Origin: an uncultured Clostridia bacterium
GTDB lineage: Bacteria > Bacillota > Clostridia > Christensenellales > UBA1242
Assembly: GCA_934746645.1 (NCBI GenBank)
Contig: CAKVFE010000003.1
Span: 68,997-132,996 of the forward strand
Direction of reading: 5' to 3'
DNA: 64,000 nucleotides
Position 1 is the first letter of the stretch. Each line of letters starts with the position of its first letter. A program made the position numbers and the translations under genes. A model generated the notes under the pieces. The model worked only from the letters and a program-made list of their open reading frames with translations. It did not search any database and was not told the DNA's origin. This document shows, in pieces, positions 30,465 to 63,864 of the stretch.

Positions 30465-30538
30465 GCGGATGTAGCTCAATGGTAGAGCTCTAGCCTTCCA
30501 AGCTAGTAACGTGGGTTCGATTCCCATCATCCGCTCCA
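30465..30538 (+). tRNA. tRNA-Gly (anticodon TCC), CCA encoded
   Basis: Cloverleaf folds by eye. Acceptor GCGGATG/CATCCGC, anticodon loop CTTCCAA, TΨC GGTTCGATTCC. Confidence 0.9.
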
Positions 30539-30576
30539 TTATTAGTAGGGTATAAATTGTTAATTTCCAGATATAT

Positions 30577-30653
30577 GCGCCAGTAGCTCAGCTGGATAGA
30601 GCATCGCCCTTCTAAGGCGAGGGTCGGGGGTTCGAATCCCTTCTGGCGTACCA
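30577..30653 (+). tRNA. tRNA-Arg (anticodon TCT), CCA encoded
   Basis: Acceptor GCGCCAG/CTGGCGT, anticodon loop CTTCTAA, GGTTCGAATCC. Confidence 0.9.
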
Positions 30654-30661
30654 TTTACTAT

Positions 30662-30739
30662 GGTGGATATAGTTCAGTTGGCTAGAACGCTAGATTGTGG
30701 CTCTAGAGGTCGTGGGTTCAAGTCCCACTATTCACCCCA
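30662..30739 (+). tRNA. tRNA-His (anticodon GTG) with extra 5' G(-1), CCA encoded
   Basis: Anticodon stem CTAGA/TCTAG, loop TTGTGGC, GGTTCAAGTCC. Confidence 0.9.
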
Positions 30740-30763
30740 TTATTTTAAAACTTTATATACCGT

Positions 30764-30838
30764 TGGGGTGTAGCCAAGCGGTAAGGCACGAGACTTTGAC
30801 TCTCGCATGCGTAGGTTCAAATCCTGCCACCCCAGCCA
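30764..30838 (+). tRNA. tRNA-Gln (anticodon TTG), CCA encoded
   Basis: Acceptor TGGGGTG/…CACCCCA, anticodon loop CTTTGAC, GGTTCAAATCC. Confidence 0.9.
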
Positions 30839-30847
30839 TTATTTTAT

Positions 30848-30923
30848 GGCCCATTAGCTCAGTAGGTAGAGCACATGACTTTTAATCATGGTGTCCCGAG
30901 TTCGACTCTCGGATGGGTCACCA
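30848..30923 (+). tRNA. tRNA-Lys (anticodon TTT), CCA encoded
   Basis: Anticodon stem CATGA/TCATG, loop CTTTTAA, AGTTCGACTCT. Confidence 0.9.
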
Positions 30924-30927
30924 ATAT

Positions 30928-31010
30928 GCGGACGTGGCGGAACTGGCAGACGCGCTAGACTTAGGCTCTAGTTGGAAACAGTGGGGGTTCAAGTCCCTTC
31001 GTCCGCACCA
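30928..31010 (+). tRNA. tRNA-Leu (anticodon TAG), long variable arm, CCA encoded
   Basis: Acceptor GCGGACG/CGTCCGC, anticodon loop CTTAGGC, variable arm, GGTTCAAGTCC. Confidence 0.9.
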
Positions 31011-40707: not shown

Positions 40708-41062
40708 GGGGGCGTAATGGTTTCGACGGGATTGTAAAGGTTAGGCTAAGCATATCACAGGCTCGTCTGTGTAAAAACGGAAACTTAAAATTTAAATGCA
40801 GAAAACAATACTGTATTAGCCGCTGCTTAATTTAGTCATGTGGCTTGTCCTTTTAGATAGTCCTACGGATCTATATAGGGCATTAGTTAGTAGGGTACGG
40901 ACTTTGACTTTCGCCTAGAAGTTTAAGTCTGAAACTATAGGCTGGTTCAACTTATATTTGTTAATTTTTTTAGGTTGAATAAGATATTCAAATTAACTAA
41001 ATATGTAGAAAGGTTTAAAATTTCTTTTTCGGACGCGGGTTCGACTCCCGCCGCTTCCACCA
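40708..41062 (+). ncRNA. ssrA: tmRNA (SsrA); tag reading frame 40798-40830 encodes AENNTVLAAA*
   Basis: 5' GGGGCGTAATGGTTTCGACGGG and tRNA-like 3' end GGACGCGGGTTCGACTCCCGCCGCTTCCACCA. Resume codon GCA, then GAA AAC AAT ACT GTA TTA GCC GCT GCT TAA. Starts 24 nt after smpB. Confidence 0.92.
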
Positions 41063-44244: not shown

Positions 44245-45372
44245 TTGAAAAGAAAAACTGTAGATAAACTTATTATATATGGGTGTTTAACTATATTTTT
44301 ATTGCTAACATTGATTATTGGTGGATATTTAGAAATATGGCTTAAATTAAAACCCGATATGTCAAAAATTAATAAATCTGCGTTTGAAGTACATTTTGTA
44401 GATGTTGGAGAAGGTGATGCGACCCTAATTAGGTTTAGTTCTGGCAAAACAATGTTGATTGACTCTGGAGATAATGTCAAAGTTAAACAACTCACAACAT
44501 ACATTGATAAAGTGTTCTTTAATAGTCATAAGAAAGTATTTGATTATGTTGTTTTGACTCACTCTGATAGTGACCACTCTGGCAATATGGATACTATATT
44601 GGATAAGTACAAAGTCAACAATTTTATTAGACCTAACATATTGATTGATGGACTAGAAAATTATCTTGCTGATGGTAGAGCAAAGTATGACAATAATAAC
44701 GACTATGTTTCTACTATTACAAGATTATATTCTTTAGAAAAGGAAAATAAAATTAAAGTTAGTTTTGCCGAACCTGATACTTATATAGATATGGGCAATA
44801 ATGCGAAAGTACATATATTGTCGCCACTTAAACCATATTATACTACAACCAATGATTATTCTATAGTTATGATTGTAGAAGACAACAACGAAAAATTTAT
44901 GTTGACCGGTGATGCTAGTACTGATGTAGAAAATGATATAATTAATAGTTATAATGAAGATGTGCTTGATGTTGATGTCTTAAAACTTGGTCATCACGGC
45001 AGTGATACTTCTACATCACTTGATTGGCTAGACATTACTCAACCAGACTATGCTGTTATTTCGGTTGGAGAAGACAATAGTTATCAACACCCAAGTAGTG
45101 CAGTGTTGGATAACATAGAGATATACAATGAAGAACATACCGATAAAATTAAAATAGCTCAAACATCAATTTTGGGTAATATTGTGTTTTATAGCAATAG
45201 TGCCAATCAGTTGGGTATGTTTAATATTGATAAGATAGGAGATTATTTATTCTTATCTTGGTGGGTTGTAGTTATTGTATTGATAGTTGTTATAGGTGTG
45301 TCTATGTTTATTAATGACTTTATCAATCTATTCAACCGTAACAAAGCAACCAATGTAAGGTCATTTAAATAA
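44245..45372 (+). CDS. Membrane-anchored MBL-fold hydrolase, ComEC C-terminal-domain-like
   Basis: TTG start; FVDVGEGDATLI, THSDSDH and LKLGHHGS motifs; TM helices at both termini. Confidence 0.8.
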   Translation: MKRKTVDKLIIYGCLTIFLLLTLIIGGYLEIWLKLKPDMSKINKSAFEVHFVDVGEGDATLIRFSSGKTMLIDSGDNVKVKQLTTYIDKVFFNSHKKVFDYVVLTHSDSDHSGNMDTILDKYKVNNFIRPNILIDGLENYLADGRAKYDNNNDYVSTITRLYSLEKENKIKVSFAEPDTYIDMGNNAKVHILSPLKPYYTTTNDYSIVMIVEDNNEKFMLTGDASTDVENDIINSYNEDVLDVDVLKLGHHGSDTSTSLDWLDITQPDYAVISVGEDNSYQHPSSAVLDNIEIYNEEHTDKIKIAQTSILGNIVFYSNSANQLGMFNIDKIGDYLFLSWWVVVIVLIVVIGVSMFINDFINLFNRNKATNVRSFK

Positions 45373-52229: not shown

Positions 52230-53696
52230 ATGCTAAATACAAGTTTGATAACCTCAGAAATGAATGATGAGTTGTGTGAATTAGAGCGTGTCAATTATAT
52301 GCTTATGGTTACCAATAAACAATATAGAGCTTGCCAAAATGAAGGAGTATCAGAAAGAGCTAGAAAGTACTTTGATGAAAAACTTCAATTTCTATCCGAA
52401 TATTACGATACACTTGTTAATGAGATAAAAAAAGAATATAGTAATAGAAGATTTGAAGATACTCAGTTAATTAATGAAAAAACTGAAAAATTTAGAAATT
52501 TGTTTTTGCAAGAATATCCAGAATGTGGTGGCAAGTTTGAAGACAAATTTGATAAATATGGCAATAGTACATATCTTCCTTTCCAAGAAGATTTTTATAA
52601 ATTTTGTTCTGGTGAACCAACATTAAGAGATGATATGTTGTTTTATGCGTATACAAATTTTGTTTCTTCAAAATTGATTGAAGCACAATATGACAATTTC
52701 TTTGAACTGCTTAATGGTATTGTTGAACAAATCAATGAATATGGTGTAAGACCTATATGGGGACAACAATTAAGTGAAAATCTAAAAGAAGTACCAGCTT
52801 GGGCAGTTGCTAATATCAATGATATAGCCAATGGTAAAAGATTGGAAACAAAAAATGATTTAAGAAAAGTCGCTATGCAAAATCTTAATCTTAAAAAGAT
52901 GGTTAAAAAGAATGGTAGTGACCCAGTAAGTATTGCTAAATATAAAGAATTGGTACATAAAGTAAACAAACTAGAAAGCGAAATTGTTTTAAACGATAAA
53001 ATAATTGCAAGCAGTAACAATCCTGCTTGTAGAGCAGATTGTTTAACTTATGGTTGGAGATTTAGAGATACTGGATTATTGTCAATAATTGACAACATAA
53101 CTAAATTTGTAAACAATGTTCCTAGAGATATATTAAACATTGATGAAGAGCGTACAAAAATGATTGTTACTAATAGAGAAATAAATGACATAGTTGAGTA
53201 TGCAAAAAATCAACTAGAAACATTAGAACCAACTTTAGTTTTGGCAAAAGTAAGCAATCAACCTATATCTTTTAAATTAAAAGATTATGAGTATTCAAAA
53301 AATGCAATAATGTTTATTGATACAATGCACAAATATAATTCTGCTAGAACTATGGAACTTAATGAACAATTAAAAAATAGAAAACTAAAACCAAAGCAAG
53401 TTAAAGAAATTAATTCCGAATTAGACAAAATTAATGATTGTATTTCTAGTTATGATATTGCAAAATTTACTACACCTTATGGCGTAGTTAAATATGTCAA
53501 TGGACAATTAATCAACACTCTAAATAATACTCCTATAAGCATATCTAAATTGGATACATATAGATGTGTAGAAGGTAAGACAATGGAAAGATTGGATAGA
53601 GATGGTGTAATTGTTGAAAGTACATCAGTAAAAAATATGGAAAAACTATTAGTTAATGTCTATGATAGATACAAAAATGCAGGAAGAGGAATGTAA
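52230..53696 (+). CDS. Hypothetical protein (488 aa, orphan)
   Basis: GGAGGG RBS and a long uninterrupted ORF; no recognisable motif. Confidence 0.6.
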   Translation: MLNTSLITSEMNDELCELERVNYMLMVTNKQYRACQNEGVSERARKYFDEKLQFLSEYYDTLVNEIKKEYSNRRFEDTQLINEKTEKFRNLFLQEYPECGGKFEDKFDKYGNSTYLPFQEDFYKFCSGEPTLRDDMLFYAYTNFVSSKLIEAQYDNFFELLNGIVEQINEYGVRPIWGQQLSENLKEVPAWAVANINDIANGKRLETKNDLRKVAMQNLNLKKMVKKNGSDPVSIAKYKELVHKVNKLESEIVLNDKIIASSNNPACRADCLTYGWRFRDTGLLSIIDNITKFVNNVPRDILNIDEERTKMIVTNREINDIVEYAKNQLETLEPTLVLAKVSNQPISFKLKDYEYSKNAIMFIDTMHKYNSARTMELNEQLKNRKLKPKQVKEINSELDKINDCISSYDIAKFTTPYGVVKYVNGQLINTLNNTPISISKLDTYRCVEGKTMERLDRDGVIVESTSVKNMEKLLVNVYDRYKNAGRGM

Positions 53697-54547: not shown

Positions 54548-54623
54548 GCTGATGTGGCTCAGTTGGTAGAGCAATGCATTCGTAATGCGTAGGCCGTGGG
54601 TTCGAGTCCCACCATCAGCTCCA
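54548..54623 (+). tRNA. tRNA-Thr (anticodon CGT), CCA encoded
   Basis: Acceptor GCTGATG/CATCAGC, anticodon loop TTCGTAA, GGTTCGAGTCC. Confidence 0.9.
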
Positions 54624-54680: not shown

Positions 54681-54739
54681 ATTTAAAATAAATGCAATAT
54701 TGATAGCGCTTATGGTATAATCGGAGAAAGGAGTTAATT

Positions 54740-55030
54740 ATGGCTTCAAGTGTAGAGTATAGAGATTTTATTTTGGATCAACTATCAGATTTAAATCCGA
54801 CATACAAATCTATGATGGGTGAATATTTGATATATGTTAATGGTATTTATTTTGGTGGTATATTTGATGATAGGTTCTTATTGAAAATCACTGAAACAAA
54901 TAACAACTATAGACTAAGCAAAGTTTTGCCTTATGAAAATGCAAAACAAATGTACTTAGTCGAAAATGTAGACGATAGAAAATATCTTACATTGTTGGTA
55001 TTAGATACTATTAAGGGTTTAAAAAAGTAA
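54740..55030 (+). CDS. TfoX N-terminal-domain-like protein
   Basis: 96 aa; …YRDFILDQL……MMGEYLIYVNGIYFGGIFDDRFLLK… matches the TfoX_N pattern. Confidence 0.55.
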   Translation: MASSVEYRDFILDQLSDLNPTYKSMMGEYLIYVNGIYFGGIFDDRFLLKITETNNNYRLSKVLPYENAKQMYLVENVDDRKYLTLLVLDTIKGLKK

Positions 55031-55042
55031 TAGGAGTGGAGT

Positions 55043-55813
55043 ATGAAAGCAATATTTTTAACTAGTTATATTGGTGGTTGCAAGACTATAATAAATGGCA
55101 ACAATATATATAAAGAAATAGTAAAATGTGATAATTCTAATGGTTTTATTGATAAATTGAAAGAAGTTTGTTCAAAGATAAACAAGATGACATTTGTTGC
55201 AAGCAATCCTGATAGCTCTTTAAAAACAGATGAACACGCTAATATCACAAAAGATGCACTTAATTTAGACGGCTTTGAAATAAAAGAATTGACAATAATA
55301 GACCATAGTTTTGTTGGCGATATAGAAAAAACTATATTGTCTTCGGATATGGTATTTTTAGCTGGTGGCAATGTGCCTATGCAAAACAAGTATTTTAAAG
55401 AAATACATCTAAAACAAATACTTCAAAAATATACTGGAGTTTTGATAGGTCAAAGTGCTGGCAGTATGAATTGTAGTGATGTCGTTTATACTCAACCTGA
55501 AGAAGTAGAAGAATTTGATGATGTTAATTACAAAAGAATTATTAGTGGATTAGGAGTGGTTGATTTTGCTATAATGCCACATATTAATAGTGCTAATGAG
55601 ATAGATGAATATGGACATCCAAGTGTTATGCAGATGTGTTTGAAAGATTCCTATCAAATACCACATTATGGGATTTGTGATTATGGTTTTATAGAAATAA
55701 TCAATCATAATGCAGTAGCTTATGGCAAAACATATCTTATTGACAATGGTGTATGTAAACAAATTTGTGATGACGGACAAAGTGTTGCTATATCAAAATT
55801 GTCTATGCACTAG
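55043..55813 (+). CDS. Peptidase S51 / type-1 glutamine-amidotransferase-like (dipeptidase E family) protein
   Basis: FLAGGN and nucleophile-elbow GQSAGSM motifs. Confidence 0.6.
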   Translation: MKAIFLTSYIGGCKTIINGNNIYKEIVKCDNSNGFIDKLKEVCSKINKMTFVASNPDSSLKTDEHANITKDALNLDGFEIKELTIIDHSFVGDIEKTILSSDMVFLAGGNVPMQNKYFKEIHLKQILQKYTGVLIGQSAGSMNCSDVVYTQPEEVEEFDDVNYKRIISGLGVVDFAIMPHINSANEIDEYGHPSVMQMCLKDSYQIPHYGICDYGFIEIINHNAVAYGKTYLIDNGVCKQICDDGQSVAISKLSMH

Positions 55814-55969
55814 TTGGTAACAAGTGGTATCATAGTTAGTAAATGGTATTTGGCTATCTGTCGTAGTTGCCGAATGTTTGGCATTGATAGTTAGTATAGT
55901 TTGCCTAATCGCAAAAAAGAAAAAATATCAATATTAGATTTATGTGTTAAGAATATATAAAACAAAAAA

Positions 55970-55996
55970 CTGAAAGAATTTTCTTTCAGTTTTTTT
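55970..55996. terminator. Terminator (A-run/T-run flanked)
   Basis: CTGAAAGA-ATTT-TCTTTCAG plus T7. Confidence 0.8.
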
Positions 55997-56007
55997 AATC
56001 AACAATT

Positions 56008-56063: not shown

Positions 56064-56699
56064 ATGAAAAAACAAATTGTTAATCCAGTATTAAGACAAC
56101 CTATGCTTAATGGTATTATGCCTGTGTGGGATAGTAACAGCCAAATATTGATGTTGGGTTCAATAACTGCTACAGATGGTATGAAAAAAGGTTTTTATTA
56201 TGCGAGTCAACGCAACCAGTTTTGGCAGTTATTGGATTGTGTTTTGGGTACAACTTGTTTTTCAGATTTAAAAGACCAATTAAAAAACAACTATGATAAT
56301 TATAAGAATGGTTTGATTGATTTTGATATTTTTGAAGATAACAAAAACAAAATTAAAGAAACAATGGCTTTTGAATTAACAAAAAGAAAAATTGCTATTT
56401 GTGATGTATTTTTGCAATGTTATTTTAACAACAATAGTTCGCTTGATAATGATATTATTCTTAATGACCCATTGTATCCAGCGATGTCTAATAAAGAAAC
56501 AATAAAAAATATTATTGATAATTCTAATATAAAATATGTCGTTGTTAATAGCCGATTTGTGCAAAAACAATTTGAAAAAATGCACATAACTGGTGACTTT
56601 GAAGTTAAATATGTTGTTAGTCCATCTCCAAGAAAAGGGAGTATTGATAGTAAATTATCTAGTTGGCAATCAGTATTTAACGAATTGAATAAGGATTGA
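56064..56699 (+). CDS. UDG-superfamily DNA glycosylase (DNA-deoxyinosine / hypoxanthine glycosylase-like)
   Basis: ILMLGSITATDGMKKGFYYASQRNQFWQLL resembles the family pattern ilGS.P…S……YYa.p.N.FW. TGA stop; no terminator before the next gene. Confidence 0.6.
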   Translation: MKKQIVNPVLRQPMLNGIMPVWDSNSQILMLGSITATDGMKKGFYYASQRNQFWQLLDCVLGTTCFSDLKDQLKNNYDNYKNGLIDFDIFEDNKNKIKETMAFELTKRKIAICDVFLQCYFNNNSSLDNDIILNDPLYPAMSNKETIKNIIDNSNIKYVVVNSRFVQKQFEKMHITGDFEVKYVVSPSPRKGSIDSKLSSWQSVFNELNKD

Positions 56700-56782
56700 T
56701 AATATTAATTACGTAAAAAAAATAATATGTGATATACTTATAAAAAATAGATTATAAAATTATGTTTAAATAAGGAAGTAGT

Positions 56783-56959
56783 ATGTTAAAATTCTCAGCT
56801 GGGTATGTAGGGACTAATCCTAATTTTGTAATACAAAATATTGATGTGAAAAGTAAAAACAATAATCCAGTATTTTCTATATTTAATAATATATTGTTAA
56901 GAGGGTGTCCAACTATACCATCTAAATTTTTACAAAAAAATTTGCGGGGGGGGGTATAA
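56783..56959 (+). CDS. 5' fragment (58 codons) of the nuclease-helicase gene, truncated by a frameshift at the homopolymer tracts
   Basis: ATG 56783 is preceded by AAGGAAG (56772-56778). Reads …PSKFLQKNLRGGV* with TAA at 56957-56959, immediately after G9. Confidence 0.7.
   Translation: MLKFSAGYVGTNPNFVIQNIDVKSKNNNPVFSIFNNILLRGCPTIPSKFLQKNLRGGV
56934..56954 (+). repeat. Homopolymer pair A7 (56934-56940) and G9 (56946-56954): candidate slipped-strand / phase-variation tract
   Basis: Counted directly: tacAAAAAAAtttgcGGGGGGGGGtat. I noticed no other G or C run longer than about 5 in the window. Confidence 0.85.
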
Positions 56960-57114
56960 CTACTCGTTTTAATTATGTATATGATTTTGAAAATGTTTGT
57001 TGGAATAATATAATTAAAGGTGGAGTAGAAACAAATCCTGCAATTGTTTTTTATAATGAAATACTACCTAAAGTATTAGGGAAATATGCTAAAACTTTTA
57101 TTGCTGAGTGTCCA

Positions 57115-60054
57115 TTGTCTGACATAATTTATAAATATGGAAATGTAGATTTTGAAAGTGTAGATTTTTATTCTCCATTATTTAATGCTGTTATAGAAAT
57201 TGATGGAAATCAACATATAAACAATGATGAGCAAAACATAAAAGACCATAATAGAAATAAAGTATTAGAATTAAATGGTGTTGATATTATTAGAATAAAA
57301 ACATCTGAGATAAATAACATTAATATAGTGAAACAAAAATTAAATAAATTAAAATATAATCTGGATTATAAAAATTCAGTTGTTTTTTCTAATAAATTAA
57401 GTGAATGTGATTTATATTATATGTCTATTATGAGAATAGAAATTTTATTGTTGTCTTTATATCAATATAATTATTTAAAATTGACAGATAATCAAATTGC
57501 ATTAAATATATATAGTAAGGAAAATATAAAAAAAGAAATTTTTGAAACTGCATATTTTGATTTTATGTCGTGGCTAAAAAATTTGTCAGTTTTGCAAAAT
57601 CAAAAATTTGTAATTCCTAACTTACATATAAATATAGTTAATAGTGAAAAAGAATTATCTATATTAAAAAATGGTATTAATATTGCTATTTTTTTGAAAG
57701 ATGTATATTCACAAACTAATTATAGTAATATTATTTACATAAAAAATGATTATTTCTTATATGAAGAGAATCTAATTCCAACAATAGAAAATAATTCTAC
57801 AAAAAGTTCATATAGATATAAAAAAAATTATTTTAAAGTATCTAATTGTAATATCACTTATAAGATAACAAAAGAAGGACATAGTGAAGCTTTAATTTAT
57901 ATACTTAAAAATGTTTCTAATATTTATAATGATTTTAGAGCAAATCAATTAGACATTATAATAGAATGTCTAAATAAAACAAGTGTTATAGGAATTTTGC
58001 CGACTGGAGCTGGCAAGTCATTGTGCTATCAACTCGTAGCATTATTAATTCCGTCCATAACATTAGTTGTATCTCCATTACAATTATTAATGATTGATCA
58101 ATATAATAGTATTAAGGCAAAACTTGGAATAACTAATATAATATATATTAGTGCTGATACGAAAGAAAATATAAGTGTATTGGAGAATAACCAAGCTTTA
58201 ATTTGTATAATTTCACCAGAAAGATTTTTTAGTGAAAAATTTACAAGTTTGTTGTCTAGTAAAAGAATTTCTGTAGGGTTTGTGGTAATCGATGAAGCTC
58301 ATTGTTTATCTGAATGGGGACACGATTTTAGAACATCTTATTTATGTTTAAGCCATAATCTTAATAGATTTTTGCCAAATAATACATACTTAATGGCATT
58401 AACAGCCACAGCATCTAATAGAGTATTCGAGGATATAGATTGTGAGTTTCAGAACTTTAAACATAAAAAGACAAGATCAATATATGCTGATTGTATGAAA
58501 AGAGATAATTTAACCATAATTGTACTCGAAACAAAAGATAAATATAAAGAACTAATTGATAATATTTATCCTACATTAGTTGGTGTTAATAAAGATAAGA
58601 CTTTGATATTTACTAAAACAAAATATTCATATTATGCCCCACATGCTTCTGCATGTATTACATTGACTGAAGCAATAAAAAGTGAATATGATAAAAAAAT
58701 TGATTGTAACTTAATAGACTACTATGCTGGTGGCGATGATGATAATAATCAAGATAAAATTAAAAAATTGAATCAATTTAAAAATGGAAATAAATTAGTA
58801 TTTTTTGCAACAAAGGCTTTTGGTATGGGAGTTGATATCCCTGATATAAGAAAAACAATTCATTATGGATTACCATCTTCATTGGAAGGTTTATATCAAC
58901 AAGTTGGTAGAGCTGGAAGAGACGGAAAACCTTCAAAATGTTATGTCTATTTTACTAAAGAAAGAGAAGAAACTTTAAATTTGTATTTTAAGATTCCACC
59001 AATACCTGTAAGTGTTATGGAAAATCATTTAAATATGCTTAATGAATTACGAACTAATTTTTATTTTATAGAAAATTCTAATTTGGATATTGATATTGAA
59101 AAAGAAGTATGCATTAGATTGTTAGAGGGGATCAAAAGGATAAACAAAAAAGGTAAAACTGACATATCTTGTTCTATTATTAAAGATAGTATTCTAAGAA
59201 GTGTTAATGATACACATTTAAATAAAATATTTGAAAAATATGGTAGTGTAAAAAATATTATAGAAAAAGGGCTGTATAGATTATTTTTATTAGGCGAAAT
59301 AAATATGTGGGGAGTGGTTTATGCTCAAAATTTAAATGATCCGATTTTTAATCATTTACAAGTTACAAGTTTATCTGAAGAAGAAAAACTTGCAAAATTA
59401 AAATATCATATTGAAAAGTATGAATCTAAATTTAAATTTGAAGATGGAAATTCTTTTGATAATAGATTAAAATTTTTAATTAGATGGACGTATGATAATT
59501 TTTTACAAGAAAGAATACAATCTATGAAAACTTTGTATGAAGAATGTGTGCATTTTACTACATCTGAAAGATTTATAAATTTTATTGATGAATATTTTTC
59601 AAATGACCCTATATATACTCAATTGATATCTAAGGGAGTAGAACTGAAAAAATGGATAAGGGCACTTGAAGAATATCCCGAAAAGACGAAGGATAGAATA
59701 GCAAGATTACTAGAATCTTATGATAAAATTACACCATTAAATTATGTATCTGGAATTACTAGATTGAGAGTTAACGATTTTGAACATAGTGATGGTAGAA
59801 GAAGATTGTGTATGGCGTTGGAAGAAATAAAAGAATATAGTGATGAAGATAGAATGTACTTGTTTTTTAATACATATAAATATTTAACGAAAGATAAACA
59901 AAATACATTTGTGGAATGTTGGCTAAATTATTGCAAAGAAGATGCACAAAAAATATATGAAAGTACACAAAATGAATGTTGTGAACAATTTTTAATTATA
60001 AATTTTGTAAATGATTTGTTGAAAATAGGAGAAAAAATAGATGATAGATTATAA
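57115..60054 (+). CDS. Vsr/DUF559-like PD-(D/E)XK nuclease fused to a RecQ-family SF2 helicase with a long unassigned C-terminal region (main frame; true 5' end probably 56783 via frameshift)
   Basis: Nuclease core VDFYSPLFNAVIEIDGNQH…D..RN..L…GVDIIRI (about 57148-57312). Helicase motif I PTGAGKS (58000-58020), motif II DEAH (58291-58302) in VVIDEAHCLSEWGHDFR, motif III LTATA, motif V FGMGVDIPDIR, motif VI QQVGRAGRDG (58897-58926). The frame is open back to 56926, has no ATG/GTG, and has no SD before the TTG at 57115. Confidence 0.8.
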   Translation: MSDIIYKYGNVDFESVDFYSPLFNAVIEIDGNQHINNDEQNIKDHNRNKVLELNGVDIIRIKTSEINNINIVKQKLNKLKYNLDYKNSVVFSNKLSECDLYYMSIMRIEILLLSLYQYNYLKLTDNQIALNIYSKENIKKEIFETAYFDFMSWLKNLSVLQNQKFVIPNLHINIVNSEKELSILKNGINIAIFLKDVYSQTNYSNIIYIKNDYFLYEENLIPTIENNSTKSSYRYKKNYFKVSNCNITYKITKEGHSEALIYILKNVSNIYNDFRANQLDIIIECLNKTSVIGILPTGAGKSLCYQLVALLIPSITLVVSPLQLLMIDQYNSIKAKLGITNIIYISADTKENISVLENNQALICIISPERFFSEKFTSLLSSKRISVGFVVIDEAHCLSEWGHDFRTSYLCLSHNLNRFLPNNTYLMALTATASNRVFEDIDCEFQNFKHKKTRSIYADCMKRDNLTIIVLETKDKYKELIDNIYPTLVGVNKDKTLIFTKTKYSYYAPHASACITLTEAIKSEYDKKIDCNLIDYYAGGDDDNNQDKIKKLNQFKNGNKLVFFATKAFGMGVDIPDIRKTIHYGLPSSLEGLYQQVGRAGRDGKPSKCYVYFTKEREETLNLYFKIPPIPVSVMENHLNMLNELRTNFYFIENSNLDIDIEKEVCIRLLEGIKRINKKGKTDISCSIIKDSILRSVNDTHLNKIFEKYGSVKNIIEKGLYRLFLLGEINMWGVVYAQNLNDPIFNHLQVTSLSEEEKLAKLKYHIEKYESKFKFEDGNSFDNRLKFLIRWTYDNFLQERIQSMKTLYEECVHFTTSERFINFIDEYFSNDPIYTQLISKGVELKKWIRALEEYPEKTKDRIARLLESYDKITPLNYVSGITRLRVNDFEHSDGRRRLCMALEEIKEYSDEDRMYLFFNTYKYLTKDKQNTFVECWLNYCKEDAQKIYESTQNECCEQFLIINFVNDLLKIGEKIDDRL

Positions 60055-60625
60055 AGAAATGGACAATGTAGTTAAACAACTAAATTTATACATTGATAAG
60101 ATTGAAAAGTTTACTCAAACGCAAGAGAAATTAAATATATCTATTAGTGAAATTGATAAAATAAAAAATGAAATTTTAGTGACTAAAGAAGATATAAAGA
60201 AATTTGAAGAATTAGTTGGTGATTATACTCAATCAATTAAAGATTTGGAAAATCAACACAATATCATAAAATCGCAATTTGATACAGTTCTACGAGATTA
60301 TAAAAATTTACATTCATCTTATGAATTATTGGAAATCGAATTAAAAAAAGTTGATTCAAAAATTGACGATTGTAATAAAGATATTAAAGAATTGAGTGAA
60401 AAAATTGATTCAAAAATTGAAGATTGTAATAAAAATATTTTGGTTTTAGATGAAAATATGAAAAATAGTTTTGAATTAATAAAGTCAGAACATAAAATGT
60501 TATCTGAAAATTTGAATGATATTTCTAACACTCAGAAAATTCAAAACGTTTGGATAGGATTGTTAAGTGGAATTTTAGGCATTGTTTTAATATTGAATAT
60601 TATTTTATTTTTTAAATTTATCTAG
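60041..60625 (+). CDS. Tail-anchored coiled-coil protein (C-terminal TM helix), translationally coupled to the nuclease-helicase
   Basis: ATG 60041 follows AGGAG and overlaps the upstream gene by 14 nt. Heptad-rich K/E/I/L sequence; C-terminal VWIGLLSGILGIVLILNIILFF (60548-60613) followed by only 3 residues. Confidence 0.7.
   Translation: MIDYKEMDNVVKQLNLYIDKIEKFTQTQEKLNISISEIDKIKNEILVTKEDIKKFEELVGDYTQSIKDLENQHNIIKSQFDTVLRDYKNLHSSYELLEIELKKVDSKIDDCNKDIKELSEKIDSKIEDCNKNILVLDENMKNSFELIKSEHKMLSENLNDISNTQKIQNVWIGLLSGILGIVLILNIILFFKFI
60351..60439 (+). repeat. Internal direct repeat, 35 nt twice with 54-nt period, in the coiled-coil gene
   Basis: TTGATTCAAAAATTGAcGATTGTAATAAAgATATT (60351-60385) vs TTGATTCAAAAATTGAaGATTGTAATAAAaATATT (60405-60439). 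Encodes DSKIDDCNKDI / DSKIEDCNKNI. Confidence 0.85.
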
Positions 60626-60652
60626 ATTTGTTTTTAATAACTATAATTATTG

Positions 60653-60681
60653 TTACACTATATTTTAATATGTGTTATAAT
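60653..60681 (+). promoter_or_regulatory. Candidate promoter with extended -10 for the lipoprotein gene
   Basis: TTACAC (60653-60658), 17-nt spacer, TGtTATAAT (60673-60681). Confidence 0.5.
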
Positions 60682-60708
60682 GTGTTATTATTGAGTGTGG
60701 GTAAAAAT

Positions 60709-61551
60709 ATGAAAAAATTTGTTATTGCTATTATGATGTTGATTTTGCCTTGTTTGGCATTGACTGGTTGTAATTCAAAACCTAGTCCTGTGGCTATTAG
60801 AGCTGTGTGGTGGTGGAGTAGTGATTTGGAAGAAGAAGTTGTTGATGAGTATCTTAATTTTGCTTATGACAATGGAATCAACGCCATATATTATTGTTCA
60901 AGTGAGTTTGGAGAAAAGACAAACGGATTTATAGAAAAAGCTAAAAAGAAGAATATGAAAGTTTATTGGTTGGACGGCTATTACAAATGGCTTACATCTG
61001 ATACATATCAAGCTAAATTGTTTGATAAAATAGATAAGTATTTGGATTATAACACCAATTATCCTGACAATGCTTTTTCTGGTGTGCATTTGGATATCGA
61101 ACCACATCAATCTCCAGACTTTAAAACAAATAGAGCAAATTTGATACTTAAACTTATAACTTTAGCTGACAAGTTGAAACAAACATACAAAACCACTAAT
61201 TTTACCTACGATATACCATTTTGGTTGCACGATGAGATAGAATACAATGGTGTCACCAAACCTGCTTATGCACATATGATAGACATTGCAGATAATATTA
61301 CTGTTATGAGCTATAGAGATAATGCAGACAAAATATATTCGGTTGCTAGTCAGGAATTGGCTTATGCTTCAAGCGTCAACAAAACAATTATTTTAAGTGT
61401 TGAATGTGGCAAAGAAGAAGATGTAGTAACATTTTATGAAGAAGGCAAAACAGTACTAAATACCGAACTTAATAGATTGTATCCAATGTTGCCACAATAT
61501 ACTGGTATGGCAATACACAATATCAAATCTTGGTATAATCTAGCAGACTAA
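60709..61551 (+). CDS. Lipoprotein, possibly TIM-barrel glycoside-hydrolase-like
   Basis: ATG 60709. Signal peptide with lipobox LALTG|C. FSGVHLDIEP loosely resembles a GH18-type D-x-E strand. The track start at 60628 is unlikely. Confidence 0.55.
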   Translation: MKKFVIAIMMLILPCLALTGCNSKPSPVAIRAVWWWSSDLEEEVVDEYLNFAYDNGINAIYYCSSEFGEKTNGFIEKAKKKNMKVYWLDGYYKWLTSDTYQAKLFDKIDKYLDYNTNYPDNAFSGVHLDIEPHQSPDFKTNRANLILKLITLADKLKQTYKTTNFTYDIPFWLHDEIEYNGVTKPAYAHMIDIADNITVMSYRDNADKIYSVASQELAYASSVNKTIILSVECGKEEDVVTFYEEGKTVLNTELNRLYPMLPQYTGMAIHNIKSWYNLAD

Positions 61552-62186: not shown

Positions 62187-62411
62187 ATGACTCAAAACAA
62201 TGACAATGGTAAATATATCTGGACAACAAAAGTGAGCAATAAAGGTCAGATAGTTATACCTAAAGAAGCAAGAGATGTGTTTGATATAAAAGAAGGTGAC
62301 ACACTTATTATGTTTGGAGATATTGAAAAAGGTATTGCATTAGCAAAATACGATGATTATTTAAAGTTTGCTGAAGCAATTTTCAATGCTAAAAATGGAG
62401 ATAAAAAGTAA
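62187..62411 (+). CDS. AbrB/MazE/SpoVT-family DNA-binding domain protein
   Basis: KVSNKGQIVIPKEARDVFDIKEGD swapped-hairpin motif. Stop overlaps the next start (TAATG). Confidence 0.65.
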   Translation: MTQNNDNGKYIWTTKVSNKGQIVIPKEARDVFDIKEGDTLIMFGDIEKGIALAKYDDYLKFAEAIFNAKNGDKK

Positions 62412-63124
62412 TGATAGAAATCAAAAATTTATCAAAATATTATGGTAAGTTGTGTGCAGTTGACAATGTCAATATGACTATTGATGACAACAAATGTTTT
62501 GCATTATTGGGACTTAATGGTGCAGGCAAAACAACATTGATTAGTGTACTAACCACTCAATTAAAACCTAGCTCTGGTACAGCAATTATCAATGGTAAAG
62601 ATTTGTTGACAGAGTCTAATGATATAAAAAAGATAATCAATATTTCGCCACAAGAAAGTGCAGTCGCTAAAAATCTTACTGTTAGGGAAAATCTACAGTT
62701 AATATCAGATTTGTATGATATTAAAGATAGTCAATCAAAAATTGATAAAGTAATTGAAGAATTTGGTCTTAAAGAAAAAACCGATACTATATGTAAAAAA
62801 CTTAGTGGTGGACAAATAAGAAGATTGAGTATTGCACTTGCTATTATAACCGAACCACAAATTTTGTTTTTAGACGAACCTACTTTAGGACTAGATGTAA
62901 AGGCAAGAAAAACATTGTGGGAAATAATTGAAAAATTAAAAAATAGTATGACTATAGTTTTGACTACACATTATCTTGATGAAGTTGAACATTTAGCTGA
63001 TGAAGTAGCCATTATTAGTCGTGGCAAAATAATGATTAAAGGGACAATAGACTTTATAAAAGAAAAGACAAATACTGACTCTTTGGAAAATGCATTTTTA
63101 AAGTTGAGTGAGGAGGAAGAATAA
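62411..63124 (+). CDS. ABC transporter ATP-binding protein
   Basis: Walker A GLNGAGKTT, signature LSGGQIRR, Walker B ILFLDEPT. Confidence 0.92.
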   Translation: MIEIKNLSKYYGKLCAVDNVNMTIDDNKCFALLGLNGAGKTTLISVLTTQLKPSSGTAIINGKDLLTESNDIKKIINISPQESAVAKNLTVRENLQLISDLYDIKDSQSKIDKVIEEFGLKEKTDTICKKLSGGQIRRLSIALAIITEPQILFLDEPTLGLDVKARKTLWEIIEKLKNSMTIVLTTHYLDEVEHLADEVAIISRGKIMIKGTIDFIKEKTNTDSLENAFLKLSEEEE

Positions 63125-63864
63125 TGAAAAAGTTGATTTCTTTAACCAAACGCAATATGAAAGAAATGTTGCGTGACCCACTTAGTCTTGTATTTTGTTT
63201 GGCTTTTCCAGTAGTTATGCTTGTATTGATGCAGTCTATATTTTTAAGTTTTGAAAATATCCCTGACAACTTTTTAATAGAAAATTATGCAAGTGGTATT
63301 TGTGTTTTTGGATATACATTTATAGGTATGTTTGTCGCTCTTCAAATAGCTTCAGATAAAAATACATCATTTATTAAAAGACTTAATATTGCACCTATTA
63401 ATAAGTTGGTGTATTATTTAAGCTTTGTATTTTCTGCATTGCCATTGGCAATATTACAATCAATAATATTTTTTGCCATAGCTTTAATATTTGGTTTTCC
63501 ATTCAATATTAATCTATTGTTGTCAATTATATATTTGATACCATCTGCTTTATTGTATATAAGTCTTGGTATTATGATTGGTGTTATATGTAACAACGAA
63601 AAACAAACAGGACCTATATCATCAATATTTATCTCTTTGACTGGTATAATGGGTGGTGTATTTATGCCATTGTCTGCATTGAAAGGTGGGATAAAAGTGG
63701 TTGTTAATATTTTGCCTTTTTCACATTCGACACTTATAGCAAGTCAACTTCATACTTTGGGAGCAAAAGCTATATATCCACATATTTTGTACTTATTATT
63801 GTATATAGTGTTATTTTTAACTATTGCAGTTGTAGTTGAACACATAAAAAGTAAAAAGAAATAA
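63124..63864 (+). CDS. ABC-2 type transporter permease
   Basis: Six predicted TM helices. Start overlaps the ATPase stop (TAATG). Confidence 0.75.
   Translation: MKKLISLTKRNMKEMLRDPLSLVFCLAFPVVMLVLMQSIFLSFENIPDNFLIENYASGICVFGYTFIGMFVALQIASDKNTSFIKRLNIAPINKLVYYLSFVFSALPLAILQSIIFFAIALIFGFPFNINLLLSIIYLIPSALLYISLGIMIGVICNNEKQTGPISSIFISLTGIMGGVFMPLSALKGGIKVVVNILPFSHSTLIASQLHTLGAKAIYPHILYLLLYIVLFLTIAVVVEHIKSKKK

Follow-up and report, generated by a model that had tools for sequence, protein, structure and literature searches.

A probable nuclease-RecQ helicase defence module with a tail-anchored coiled-coil partner in an uncultured Clostridia bacterium

A 64,000-nucleotide stretch of DNA from an uncultured Clostridia bacterium (assembly GCA_934746645.1, contig CAKVFE010000003.1, positions 68,997 to 132,996 of the forward strand), here called the window, contains a two-gene accessory cassette of 4,001 bp at positions 56703 to 60703. 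The first gene encodes a Vsr-like nuclease fused to a RecQ-type helicase once a frame-breaking run of G residues is bridged, and the second encodes a coiled-coil protein ending in a single transmembrane (TM) helix. The cassette is present or absent among strains of the same species, and the two genes stay together in nearly all relatives in which this can be evaluated. With moderate confidence, the pair is read as a mobile cassette whose most likely role is the defence of the cell against foreign DNA that enters it.

Nuclease, helicase and coiled-coil partner

The fusion gene occupies positions 56783 to 60054 on the plus strand, the strand of all cassette features described here, and has 1,090 codons when its G run is read as G10. 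A first-pass annotation, made from the sequence alone, had described a Vsr/DUF559 nuclease fused to a RecQ-type helicase in ∼1,090 codons after bridging of the frame; Pfam, NCBIfam and the repaired frame agree with this description. The protein starts with a conserved N-terminal region (residues 1 to 106; 56783 to 57099), which spans the frameshift, packs with the nuclease in an AlphaFold2 model and contains the invariant residues N36, R40, G41, S47, L50, W74, and G80. The Vsr/DUF559-type PD-(D/E)XK nuclease domain follows at residues ∼107 to 190 (57100 to 57351) and is recognized by Pfam, by fold and by invariant residues. Pfam DUF559 (PF04480) matches residues 127 to 186 with 28.7 bits, above the cutoff of 20.6, and is matched in 20 of 21 family members, with a best E value of 3e-10. 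Residues E109, D128, E139, D141, H145, D155, R158, and R171 are invariant across 34 sequences, and the catalytic residues of both nuclease and helicase are invariant across 21 to 34 diverse members. The invariant residues of the nuclease region are consistent with an active nuclease.

AlphaFold2 models of the N- and C-terminal regions, built from 34-sequence sub-alignments, are confident. The model of residues 1 to 380 reaches a predicted local distance difference test (pLDDT) score of 91.1 and a predicted template modelling score (pTM) of 0.91. Its top Foldseek match in the PDB is the Vsr-like catalytic domain of I-Bth0305I (3r3p), with a probability of 1.00, a template modelling score of 0.72 on the target and an E value of only 0.034; TnsA is found lower in the list. 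Between nuclease and helicase lies a middle alpha/beta domain (residues ∼205 to 375; 57394 to 57906), confidently modeled and without a Pfam match. The similarity of this domain to phosphoribosyltransferase (PRTase)-fold structures of the HGPRT type, with a Foldseek probability of 0.38 and a template modelling score of 0.26 at most, is a weak hint only. Residues 1 to 110, 190 to 380, and 730 to 1090 match no Pfam family in any of the 21 members.

The helicase core of the RecQ family, superfamily 2 (SF2), spans residues 382 to 727 (57925 to 58962) and shows motifs 0, I, II (DEAH), the aromatic loop, III, V, and VI, all of which are invariant in the family alignment. On the repaired protein, Pfam places DEAD at residues 387 to 550 and Helicase_C at residues 600 to 715, and the NCBIfam model recQ_fam (TIGR00614) scores 233.0 bits, above its subfamily cutoff of 219.8. 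A profile search of the PDB is led by RECQ1, RecQ, BLM, RECQ5, and WRN, with E values of about 1e-80 that concern the helicase core only. The C-terminal domain of about 365 to 375 residues (58963 to 60054) is predicted by AlphaFold2 to be mostly helical with a small winged-helix-like element (residues 716 to 1090; pLDDT of 91.3 and pTM of 0.81). Foldseek returns no significant structural match for this model, the best E values being 0.76 in the PDB and 0.32 among the viral predictions of BFVD. As the first-pass annotation had stated for the last ∼350 residues, Pfam finds no Zn-Cys4, RQC, or HRDC module in 21 members, and the C-terminal model has no RecQ-like match.

The fusion protein shares the core motifs of housekeeping RecQ, including the aromatic-rich loop, and RecQ and RECQ1 are among its top solved structures. 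In contrast to housekeeping RecQ, it carries a nuclease, contains no Zn-binding, RQC, or HRDC module and scores far below the equivalog models TIGR01389 (243 bits against 640) and PRK11057 (172 against 1,015). Most strains of the species also lack its gene, which is not conserved at a syntenic position. Equivalog scores, C-terminal modules and synteny together rule out an identity as housekeeping RecQ.

Some features of the nuclease resemble those of modification-dependent enzymes. The nuclease region matches the PADLOC model of a type II methyl-directed restriction enzyme with 26.8 bits (33 bits in the enterobacterial relative L091). Pfam PvuRts1I-like_N is matched in 4 of 21 members, and PvuRts1I, which depends on 5-hydroxymethylcytosine, is sixth in the Foldseek list of the N-terminal model. 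The cassette contains no methyltransferase gene. SauUSI has the order nuclease, helicase and then C-terminal domain, which the window protein parallels. These points would suit a single-polypeptide, ATP-dependent type IV restriction enzyme of the SauUSI kind whose C-terminal domain reads DNA modification. Against this, no SRA, DUF3427, or other known reader fold is recognizable in the C-terminal domain, the helicase belongs to the RecQ family and not to the type I, type III, ISP, or SauUSI kind, and a restriction enzyme has no obvious need of a conserved membrane-anchored coiled coil. A type IV enzyme is considered improbable.

The partner gene (60041 to 60625) encodes 194 residues and starts before the helicase stop codon, leading to an overlap of 14 nt. 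Its AGGAGA Shine-Dalgarno sequence at 60027 to 60032 is contained within the last helicase codons. The C-terminal TM segment comprises residues 172 to 190 (60554 to 60610), with a mean Kyte-Doolittle value of 2.70 over 19 residues; a charged coiled coil makes up the remainder. By hydropathy, the partner has the predicted layout of a tail-anchored protein, and the same layout is seen in 22 of 24 partners. Both coordinates and hydropathy thus bear out what the first-pass annotation had said of this gene and its overlap. Profile matches of the partner reflect generic coiled-coil similarity only (SMC, JetC, LmuB, and ZorA, the last with an E value of about 0.004). Within the coiled coil, a tandem repeat of 54 nt (18 residues) is present in two copies that are 80% identical (60345 to 60452). 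In an alignment of five strains, the copy number of this repeat differs, resulting in partners of 176, 194, and 208 residues; coiled-coil length is polymorphic between strains.

Reading frame of the fusion gene and its G run

As it stands in the window, the fusion gene is split into two pieces, one of 58 codons (56783 to 56959) and one of 979 codons (57115 to 60054), according to the list of open reading frames (ORFs) and the three-frame translation. The break lies at a homopolymer of nine G residues (G9) at 56946 to 56954, directly past which the 58-residue piece continues in another frame. The first-pass annotation had mentioned G10 in connection with repair of the frame; the tract is G9, and G10 is the repaired length. 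One inserted G yields an uninterrupted gene of 1,090 codons, and G7 restores the frame as well. The repaired protein is covered to 100% by full-length relatives of 1,087 to 1,130 residues with up to 61% identity, and the long form is therefore taken as the ancestral gene. The relatives in the family alignment have no G run at this site.

The tract is G9, and the frame is OFF, in all five independent carrier assemblies, namely, the window (whose own contig is L001) and the contigs L094, L095, L096, and L097. These assemblies come from different samples and represent three haplotypes that are 1.3 to 1.6% apart. Identical tracts in five assemblies of differing sample origin rule out an assembly error behind the frameshift.

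A doubtful reading is that the window gene is a pseudogene, with a cassette that was acquired broken, or broke once, and is now decaying, whatever the family does elsewhere. The presence of G9 in all five assemblies is in line with this, as is the absence of the repaired, ON-length protein from 15 billion catalogued proteins. The 979-codon ORF starts with TTG without an obvious Shine-Dalgarno sequence, and its product is missing both the invariant E109 and the start of the nuclease fold. The ratio of nonsynonymous to synonymous substitution rates (dN/dS) in the fusion gene is ∼0.58, indicating weak constraint only. On the other hand, 31 of the 77 sites substituted across the three carrier haplotypes are synonymous and 46 nonsynonymous, where 20.8 synonymous changes are expected under neutrality (P = 0.008). 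No stop codon has arisen, compared to 2.7 expected (P = 0.06). A single indel occurs, and it preserves the frame. Within the 333 nt upstream of the TTG codon, all three substitutions are synonymous, and the partner gene is intact in all carrier strains. The fusion ORF is under purifying selection despite its OFF frame. These data fit a gene still in use, possibly through rare G10 variants, slippage or a truncated form, better than a long-dead pseudogene.

The tract itself is unusual for this DNA. It is the sole run of at least seven G or C residues in the 64-kb window, with G9 runs expected 0.01 times by chance, and such a run is a classic substrate for slipped-strand switching, which speaks against simple decay. 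A homopolymer within the reading frame is what a contingency gene would have; the strain-to-strain variation in length that would go with it is not seen in the five assemblies, all of which are G9. Phase variation is not shown, since no tract-length variant was seen. The gene of the window is in a frame-OFF state, in which the module may be silenced, may be expressed only via rare slippage or may be expressed by G10 variants. Between the frameshift and the TTG codon, at 56987 to 57014, lies the region's strongest sigma-70-like match (TTGAAA, a 16-nt spacer, and TATAAT; 11 of 12 positions). This match may drive a truncated product or may be due to chance in AT-rich DNA.

Conservation of the pair, the cassette and its surroundings

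An adjacent partner-type gene is kept in 24 of 25 evaluable loci, counting the window, and a C-terminal TM helix is present in 22 of these partners. The two genes overlap or abut, with offsets of −35 to +10 nt. In every one of the loci examined first, the small gene overlaps the helicase stop codon or begins within 10 nt of it. There, partners with a C-terminal TM helix are found in L003, a relative at 58% identity (156 residues), in the metagenomic loci L086 (165 residues) and L088 (183 residues), in Clostridium estertheticum (L090; 202 residues), in a Chitinophaga metagenome-assembled genome of the Bacteroidota (L006; 194 residues) and on plasmids of Escherichia coli and Klebsiella (L091 and L092; 162 residues). 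The 205-residue partner of the metagenomic locus L089 has no such helix. A survey with a profile of the N-terminal region, covering metagenomes and IMG/VR, adds 17 loci whose large ORF reaches its stop codon. An adjacent ORF of 105 to 238 residues is present in 16 of them at offsets of −35 to +4 nt, and 15 of these 16 have a C-terminal TM helix; the partner in L148 does not, and the helicase of L134 is broken. Partner sequences diverge rapidly, with significant similarity within the Clostridia (E values of 6e-34 to 1e-4). The two genes form a translationally coupled pair conserved from Bacillota to Bacteroidota and Enterobacteria, and the co-occurrence of the two genes on which the first-pass annotation had made its view depend is borne out. 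Since two partners have no anchor, the conserved function is taken to reside in the coiled coil and not in the formation of a pore, and since the large protein already has a nuclease, a separate membrane effector appears unnecessary.

The family is small, with 274 clusters detected by the N-terminal profile at E values of ≤1e-30 among 1.84 billion representative proteins. A contig scan using the full-length alignment keyed on generic RecQ motifs, and its 80 loci are ordinary RecQ genes, with only L006 belonging to the family. The family is absent from 50,697 phage genomes and is found once in 2.9 million IMG/VR contigs; this near-absence rules out a phage origin. One subgroup (P0128, P0152, and P0155; about 1,270 to 1,300 residues) has an additional N-terminal extension of ∼130 to 190 residues without a Pfam or PADLOC match. 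The N terminus of P0216 (1,395 residues) is weakly PRTase_2/ShosT-like.

The cassette of the window comprises the promoter region, the fusion gene, the partner gene and a trailer of ∼80 nt. Contig L099 of the same species aligns at 98.6% identity up to position 56702 and at 98.0% from position 60704, and exactly the cassette is missing in between. At this empty site, the stop codon of a 211-residue gene sits 5 nt from the ATG of a lipoprotein gene. An identical empty site is seen in 23 further contigs, which bear another allele of the 211-residue gene. The 90% cluster of the helicase has four members only, on about nine contigs. Such patchiness, which the first-pass annotation had named as a mark to look for, is also a feature of the enterobacterial form described below, and the gene is not a RecQ found universally in synteny. 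The cassette ends show no convincing terminal inverted repeat or target-site duplication, only an AT-rich pair with 72% complementarity and a microhomology of a few bases. The GC content of the cassette is 23.6%, compared to 28.5% in both flanks, and tRNA-Thr (54548 to 54623) lies 2.1 kb upstream; both the higher AT content and the position downstream of tRNA-Thr had been recognized in the first pass. The stretch downstream of tRNA-Thr is a variable region. The same annotation had allowed for a two-gene, perhaps three-gene, module. The pair stands; the third gene does not, as the lipoprotein gene (ATG at 60709) is also found where the cassette is missing and does not accompany the pair at other loci.

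The form found in Enterobacteria is a composite operon of a DprA-family gene, a gene for a large protein of 1,558 residues and the gene for the 162-residue tail-anchored coiled coil (L091, 5842 to 11986; L093, 15056 to 21143). In the large protein, a HAD domain is added at the N terminus together with a PRTase bearing the phosphoribosyl pyrophosphate-binding motif LIIDDVLTSGATT, followed by the DUF559 nuclease and RecQ. The PRTase region shows weak matches to ShosT (29.6 bits) and to ComF/GntX-like proteins, and the DprA-family protein matches ShosA with 227 bits and PsyrA with 98 bits. ShosT/ComF-like PRTases and ShosA/PsyrA-like DprA proteins are parts of validated defence toxin-antitoxin systems (PMC4670107, PMC11232893). 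The three-gene form occurs in 7 of 5,426 complete E. coli genomes, on plasmids and on chromosomes, and E. coli copies are twice disrupted by insertion sequences (IS1 and IS5). The chromosomal copy in L093 is part of an island with an integrase, where it is flanked by a type I restriction-modification (RM) system and, at its other end, by a restriction endonuclease plus MzaABCDE. Other members of the family adjoin a type I RM system (L092), GmrSD and a HerA/TraG-like ATPase (L144), or a type III-like RM system and a serine recombinase (L002). Defence-island neighborhoods, which had been suggested as a further mark of the family, are found at these four loci, whereas many other loci lie alone between housekeeping genes.

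The enterobacterial relatives with their ShosA/PsyrA-like gene and ShosT-like PRTase also bear on an unlikely reading, in which the pair is a toxin/antitoxin-like abortive module: the coiled coil would restrain a genotoxic nuclease-helicase, and infection or loss of the partner would free the nuclease on all DNA of the cell. Such restraint would parallel that of RqlI/PsyrA on RqlH/PsyrT or of HamB on HamA. RqlH is genotoxic without RqlI, its toxicity maps to the PRTase domain and it is countered by the DprA-like RqlI (PMC4670107). The translational coupling of the pair, with the partner's Shine-Dalgarno sequence in the last helicase codons and the conserved overlap, agrees with this reading, as does the match of the RecQ core to PADLOC PsyrT. 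Recurrent inactivation, by G9 in the window, by IS1 and IS5 in E. coli and by the break in L134, would suit a costly gene. The PRTase in which the toxicity of RqlH lies is, however, absent from the window protein, and a membrane-anchored antitoxin would be unusual. The partner may just as well localize the enzyme as inhibit it, and the reading overlaps with that of a defence cassette rather than excluding it.

Links to DprA further raise the question of an accessory factor for DNA repair, recombination or competence, in which a membrane-associated RecQ-like enzyme would process transforming DNA. DprA-family genes are linked to the enterobacterial form, the fused PRTase is weakly ComF/GntX-like and the authors of the RqlHI study suggested a link to DNA uptake (PMC4670107). 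In three unrelated loci, a TfoX_N gene (∼96 to 108 residues) is located no more than 4 kb away from the pair: the window (54740 to 55030), L089 (13254 to 13553), and L090 (2128 to 2454). This link may be coincidence, because TfoX_N and the cassette are independent indels in the species; only the cassette is present in L094 and only TfoX_N in L099. The DprA-like protein matches defence antitoxins, and strain patchiness, low GC content and RM or Mza neighbors suit conflict systems better. A role in repair or competence is very improbable.

Further genes of the window show variation of their own or stand apart from the cassette. The 211-residue gene just upstream of the cassette (56064 to 56699) is present with and without it. 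Its product resembles a DNA-deoxyinosine (hypoxanthine) glycosylase below the cutoff, with 59.5 bits against 80 for TIGR04274 and an E value of 0.034 for the uracil-DNA glycosylase superfamily. In L095, a phage-type integrase is located directly upstream of this gene. The TfoX_N gene and a peptidase S51 gene (54700 to 56000) are missing in L094 and in L103-type strains, and an AbrB/MazE-like gene with an ABC transporter pair (62187 to 63864) is missing in L103-type strains; both groups of genes vary independently of the cassette. A 488-codon ORF (52230 to 53696) has no Pfam, NCBIfam, or PADLOC match and is conserved in all strains seen of the species. A metallo-beta-lactamase-fold gene at ∼44245 to 45372 (L098, 442 to 1569) adjoins a patatin-like gene and has a weak precomputed match to Apyc1 (Anti-Pycsar); it probably encodes a housekeeping hydrolase. 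Six clustered tRNA genes (Gly, Arg, His, Gln, Lys, and Leu) and a transfer-messenger RNA gene (tag AENNTVLAAA) are found at 30465 to 31010 and 40708 to 41062.

Proposed action and relation to known systems

We infer an immune function with the following steps. The product of the first gene would be a Vsr-like, metal-dependent nuclease joined via the middle domain to a RecQ-type 3′-5′ motor, followed by the helical C-terminal domain. The second gene would be translated by coupling to the first, and the cytoplasmic coiled coil that it encodes would be fixed in the membrane through its C-terminal anchor. This coiled coil may bind the nuclease-helicase, probably via the conserved C-terminal helix of the helicase, and binding would tether or restrain the enzyme on the inner side of the membrane. 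DNA of phages or plasmids, or transforming DNA, that has free ends or tails of single strand would enter or replicate at this place. The RecQ motor would load on such DNA and translocate, and the N-terminal nuclease would cut this DNA.

Several observations weigh against a defence cassette of this kind. The window copy is frame-broken in all five carrier assemblies, its repaired protein is missing from the catalogued proteins and its dN/dS value indicates little constraint. The cassette of the window, like several relatives, sits alone among housekeeping genes and not in a defence island. The partners in L089 and L148 show that membrane anchoring is not essential everywhere, and across phyla, the similarity between partners is marginal (E values of 0.003 to 0.03), so that homology there rests on position and architecture. 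A more far-reaching reading is offered tentatively, as possible: a cross-phylum system against foreign DNA, in which a length-variable, tail-anchored coiled coil positions or gates a Vsr-nuclease/RecQ enzyme at the membrane, the site of DNA entry, with the core having been added to PRTase-DprA modules of the ShosTA/PsyrTA type in Enterobacteria and with a G9/G10 switch in the lineage of the window.

If the defence reading is correct, the pair would add a defined two-gene system to nuclease-helicase immunity, with ∼270 clusters from at least three phyla and occurrences on E. coli and Klebsiella plasmids. The partner would raise the question of whether a DNA-degrading motor is confined to the membrane so that the chromosome is spared. 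The enterobacterial composite is a genetically tractable entry to the family and suggests that defence modules are built by accretion.

Among named systems, the best PADLOC matches of the window protein are to DpdF models (up to 246 bits) and to PsyrT (213 bits), both over the helicase core. DpdF is the helicase of the Dpd 7-deazaguanine modification and restriction system, and its models are the top-scoring defence hidden Markov models here. One of them, PDLC02868 (labeled DpdF; 1,078 positions), spans relatives nearly end to end with 340 to 398 bits. In other clades, it takes in the nuclease, the middle domain, the helicase and most of the C-terminal domain; the clade of the window covers only about 70% of it, with about 200 bits. 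PADLOC models come without a curated cutoff. In contrast, the NCBIfam DpdF equivalog gives 136 bits for the window protein and 139 to 151 bits for three relatives, compared to a cutoff of 550 bits. No Dpd gene (dpdA/B/C or dpdD-K) is found among the Pfam-scanned genes within 10 kb on either side or at the related loci examined, and the cassette is a self-contained 4-kb indel. Membership in DpdF is effectively refuted at this locus and has next to no probability. PDLC02868 appears to describe the nuclease-RecQ family under a borrowed name, as its label conflicts with the NCBI model, and annotations resting on this label may mislead.

A published defence inventory lists PsyrA under DprA and PsyrT under the helicases of the RecQ family (PMC11232893). 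With PsyrTA/RqlHI, the cassette shares an SF2 core of the RecQ family and an accessory two-gene operon, and enterobacterial members share the DprA gene and the PRTase, as also in ShosTA. Contrary to PsyrTA, the window protein has no PRTase match, neither cassette nor flanks contain a DprA gene and the partner is a tail-anchored coiled coil. PsyrT/RqlH (690 residues) in turn has no Vsr-like nuclease, no middle domain and no counterpart of the 365-residue C-terminal domain.

Hhe resembles the fusion protein in combining a helicase with a Vsr-type nuclease in one polypeptide and in being an accessory defence gene. Reported by Gao et al. in 2020, it combines a superfamily 1 helicase with a C-terminal nuclease and is not known to have a conserved partner. 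The window protein differs from this with its SF2 RecQ helicase, its N-terminal nuclease and its conserved partner gene, and HheA is not among its 25 best PADLOC matches. Hhe is annotated as a DUF4011 protein (PMC11232893). Hachiman HamAB consists of a nuclease and an SF2 helicase that senses DNA integrity (PMC12278908), and a DNA-surveying helicase controlling a PD-(D/E)XK-type nuclease serves as a working analogy here. Hachiman differs in having two separate proteins, another helicase clade and no membrane component, and the window protein matches no Ham model in PADLOC. In Zorya and Kiwa, sensors embedded in the membrane relay to soluble effectors that act on DNA. The pairing of a membrane-anchored component, which has a long coiled coil in the cytoplasm, with a nuclease/helicase effector is similar by analogy only, whereas the partner in the window ends in one TM helix and lacks a MotAB-like channel.

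Literature searches on DUF559, RecQ and helicase defence returned, within the library searched, no paper describing the pair of nuclease-RecQ fusion and coiled coil. The claim that no named family covers the pair, made in the first pass, therefore holds in that it departs from each compared system in curated scores or defining features, and it needs qualification in that PDLC02868 spans the large protein in other clades: the family is unnamed rather than unseen. The cassette is probably an unnamed nuclease-helicase defence module that would function like Hachiman, Hhe, and PsyrTA yet departs from the defining features of each. Two traits, the N-terminal Vsr-like nuclease fused to a RecQ motor and the conserved membrane-anchored coiled-coil partner, set it apart from Hachiman, Hhe, Nhi, Hna, and PsyrTA.

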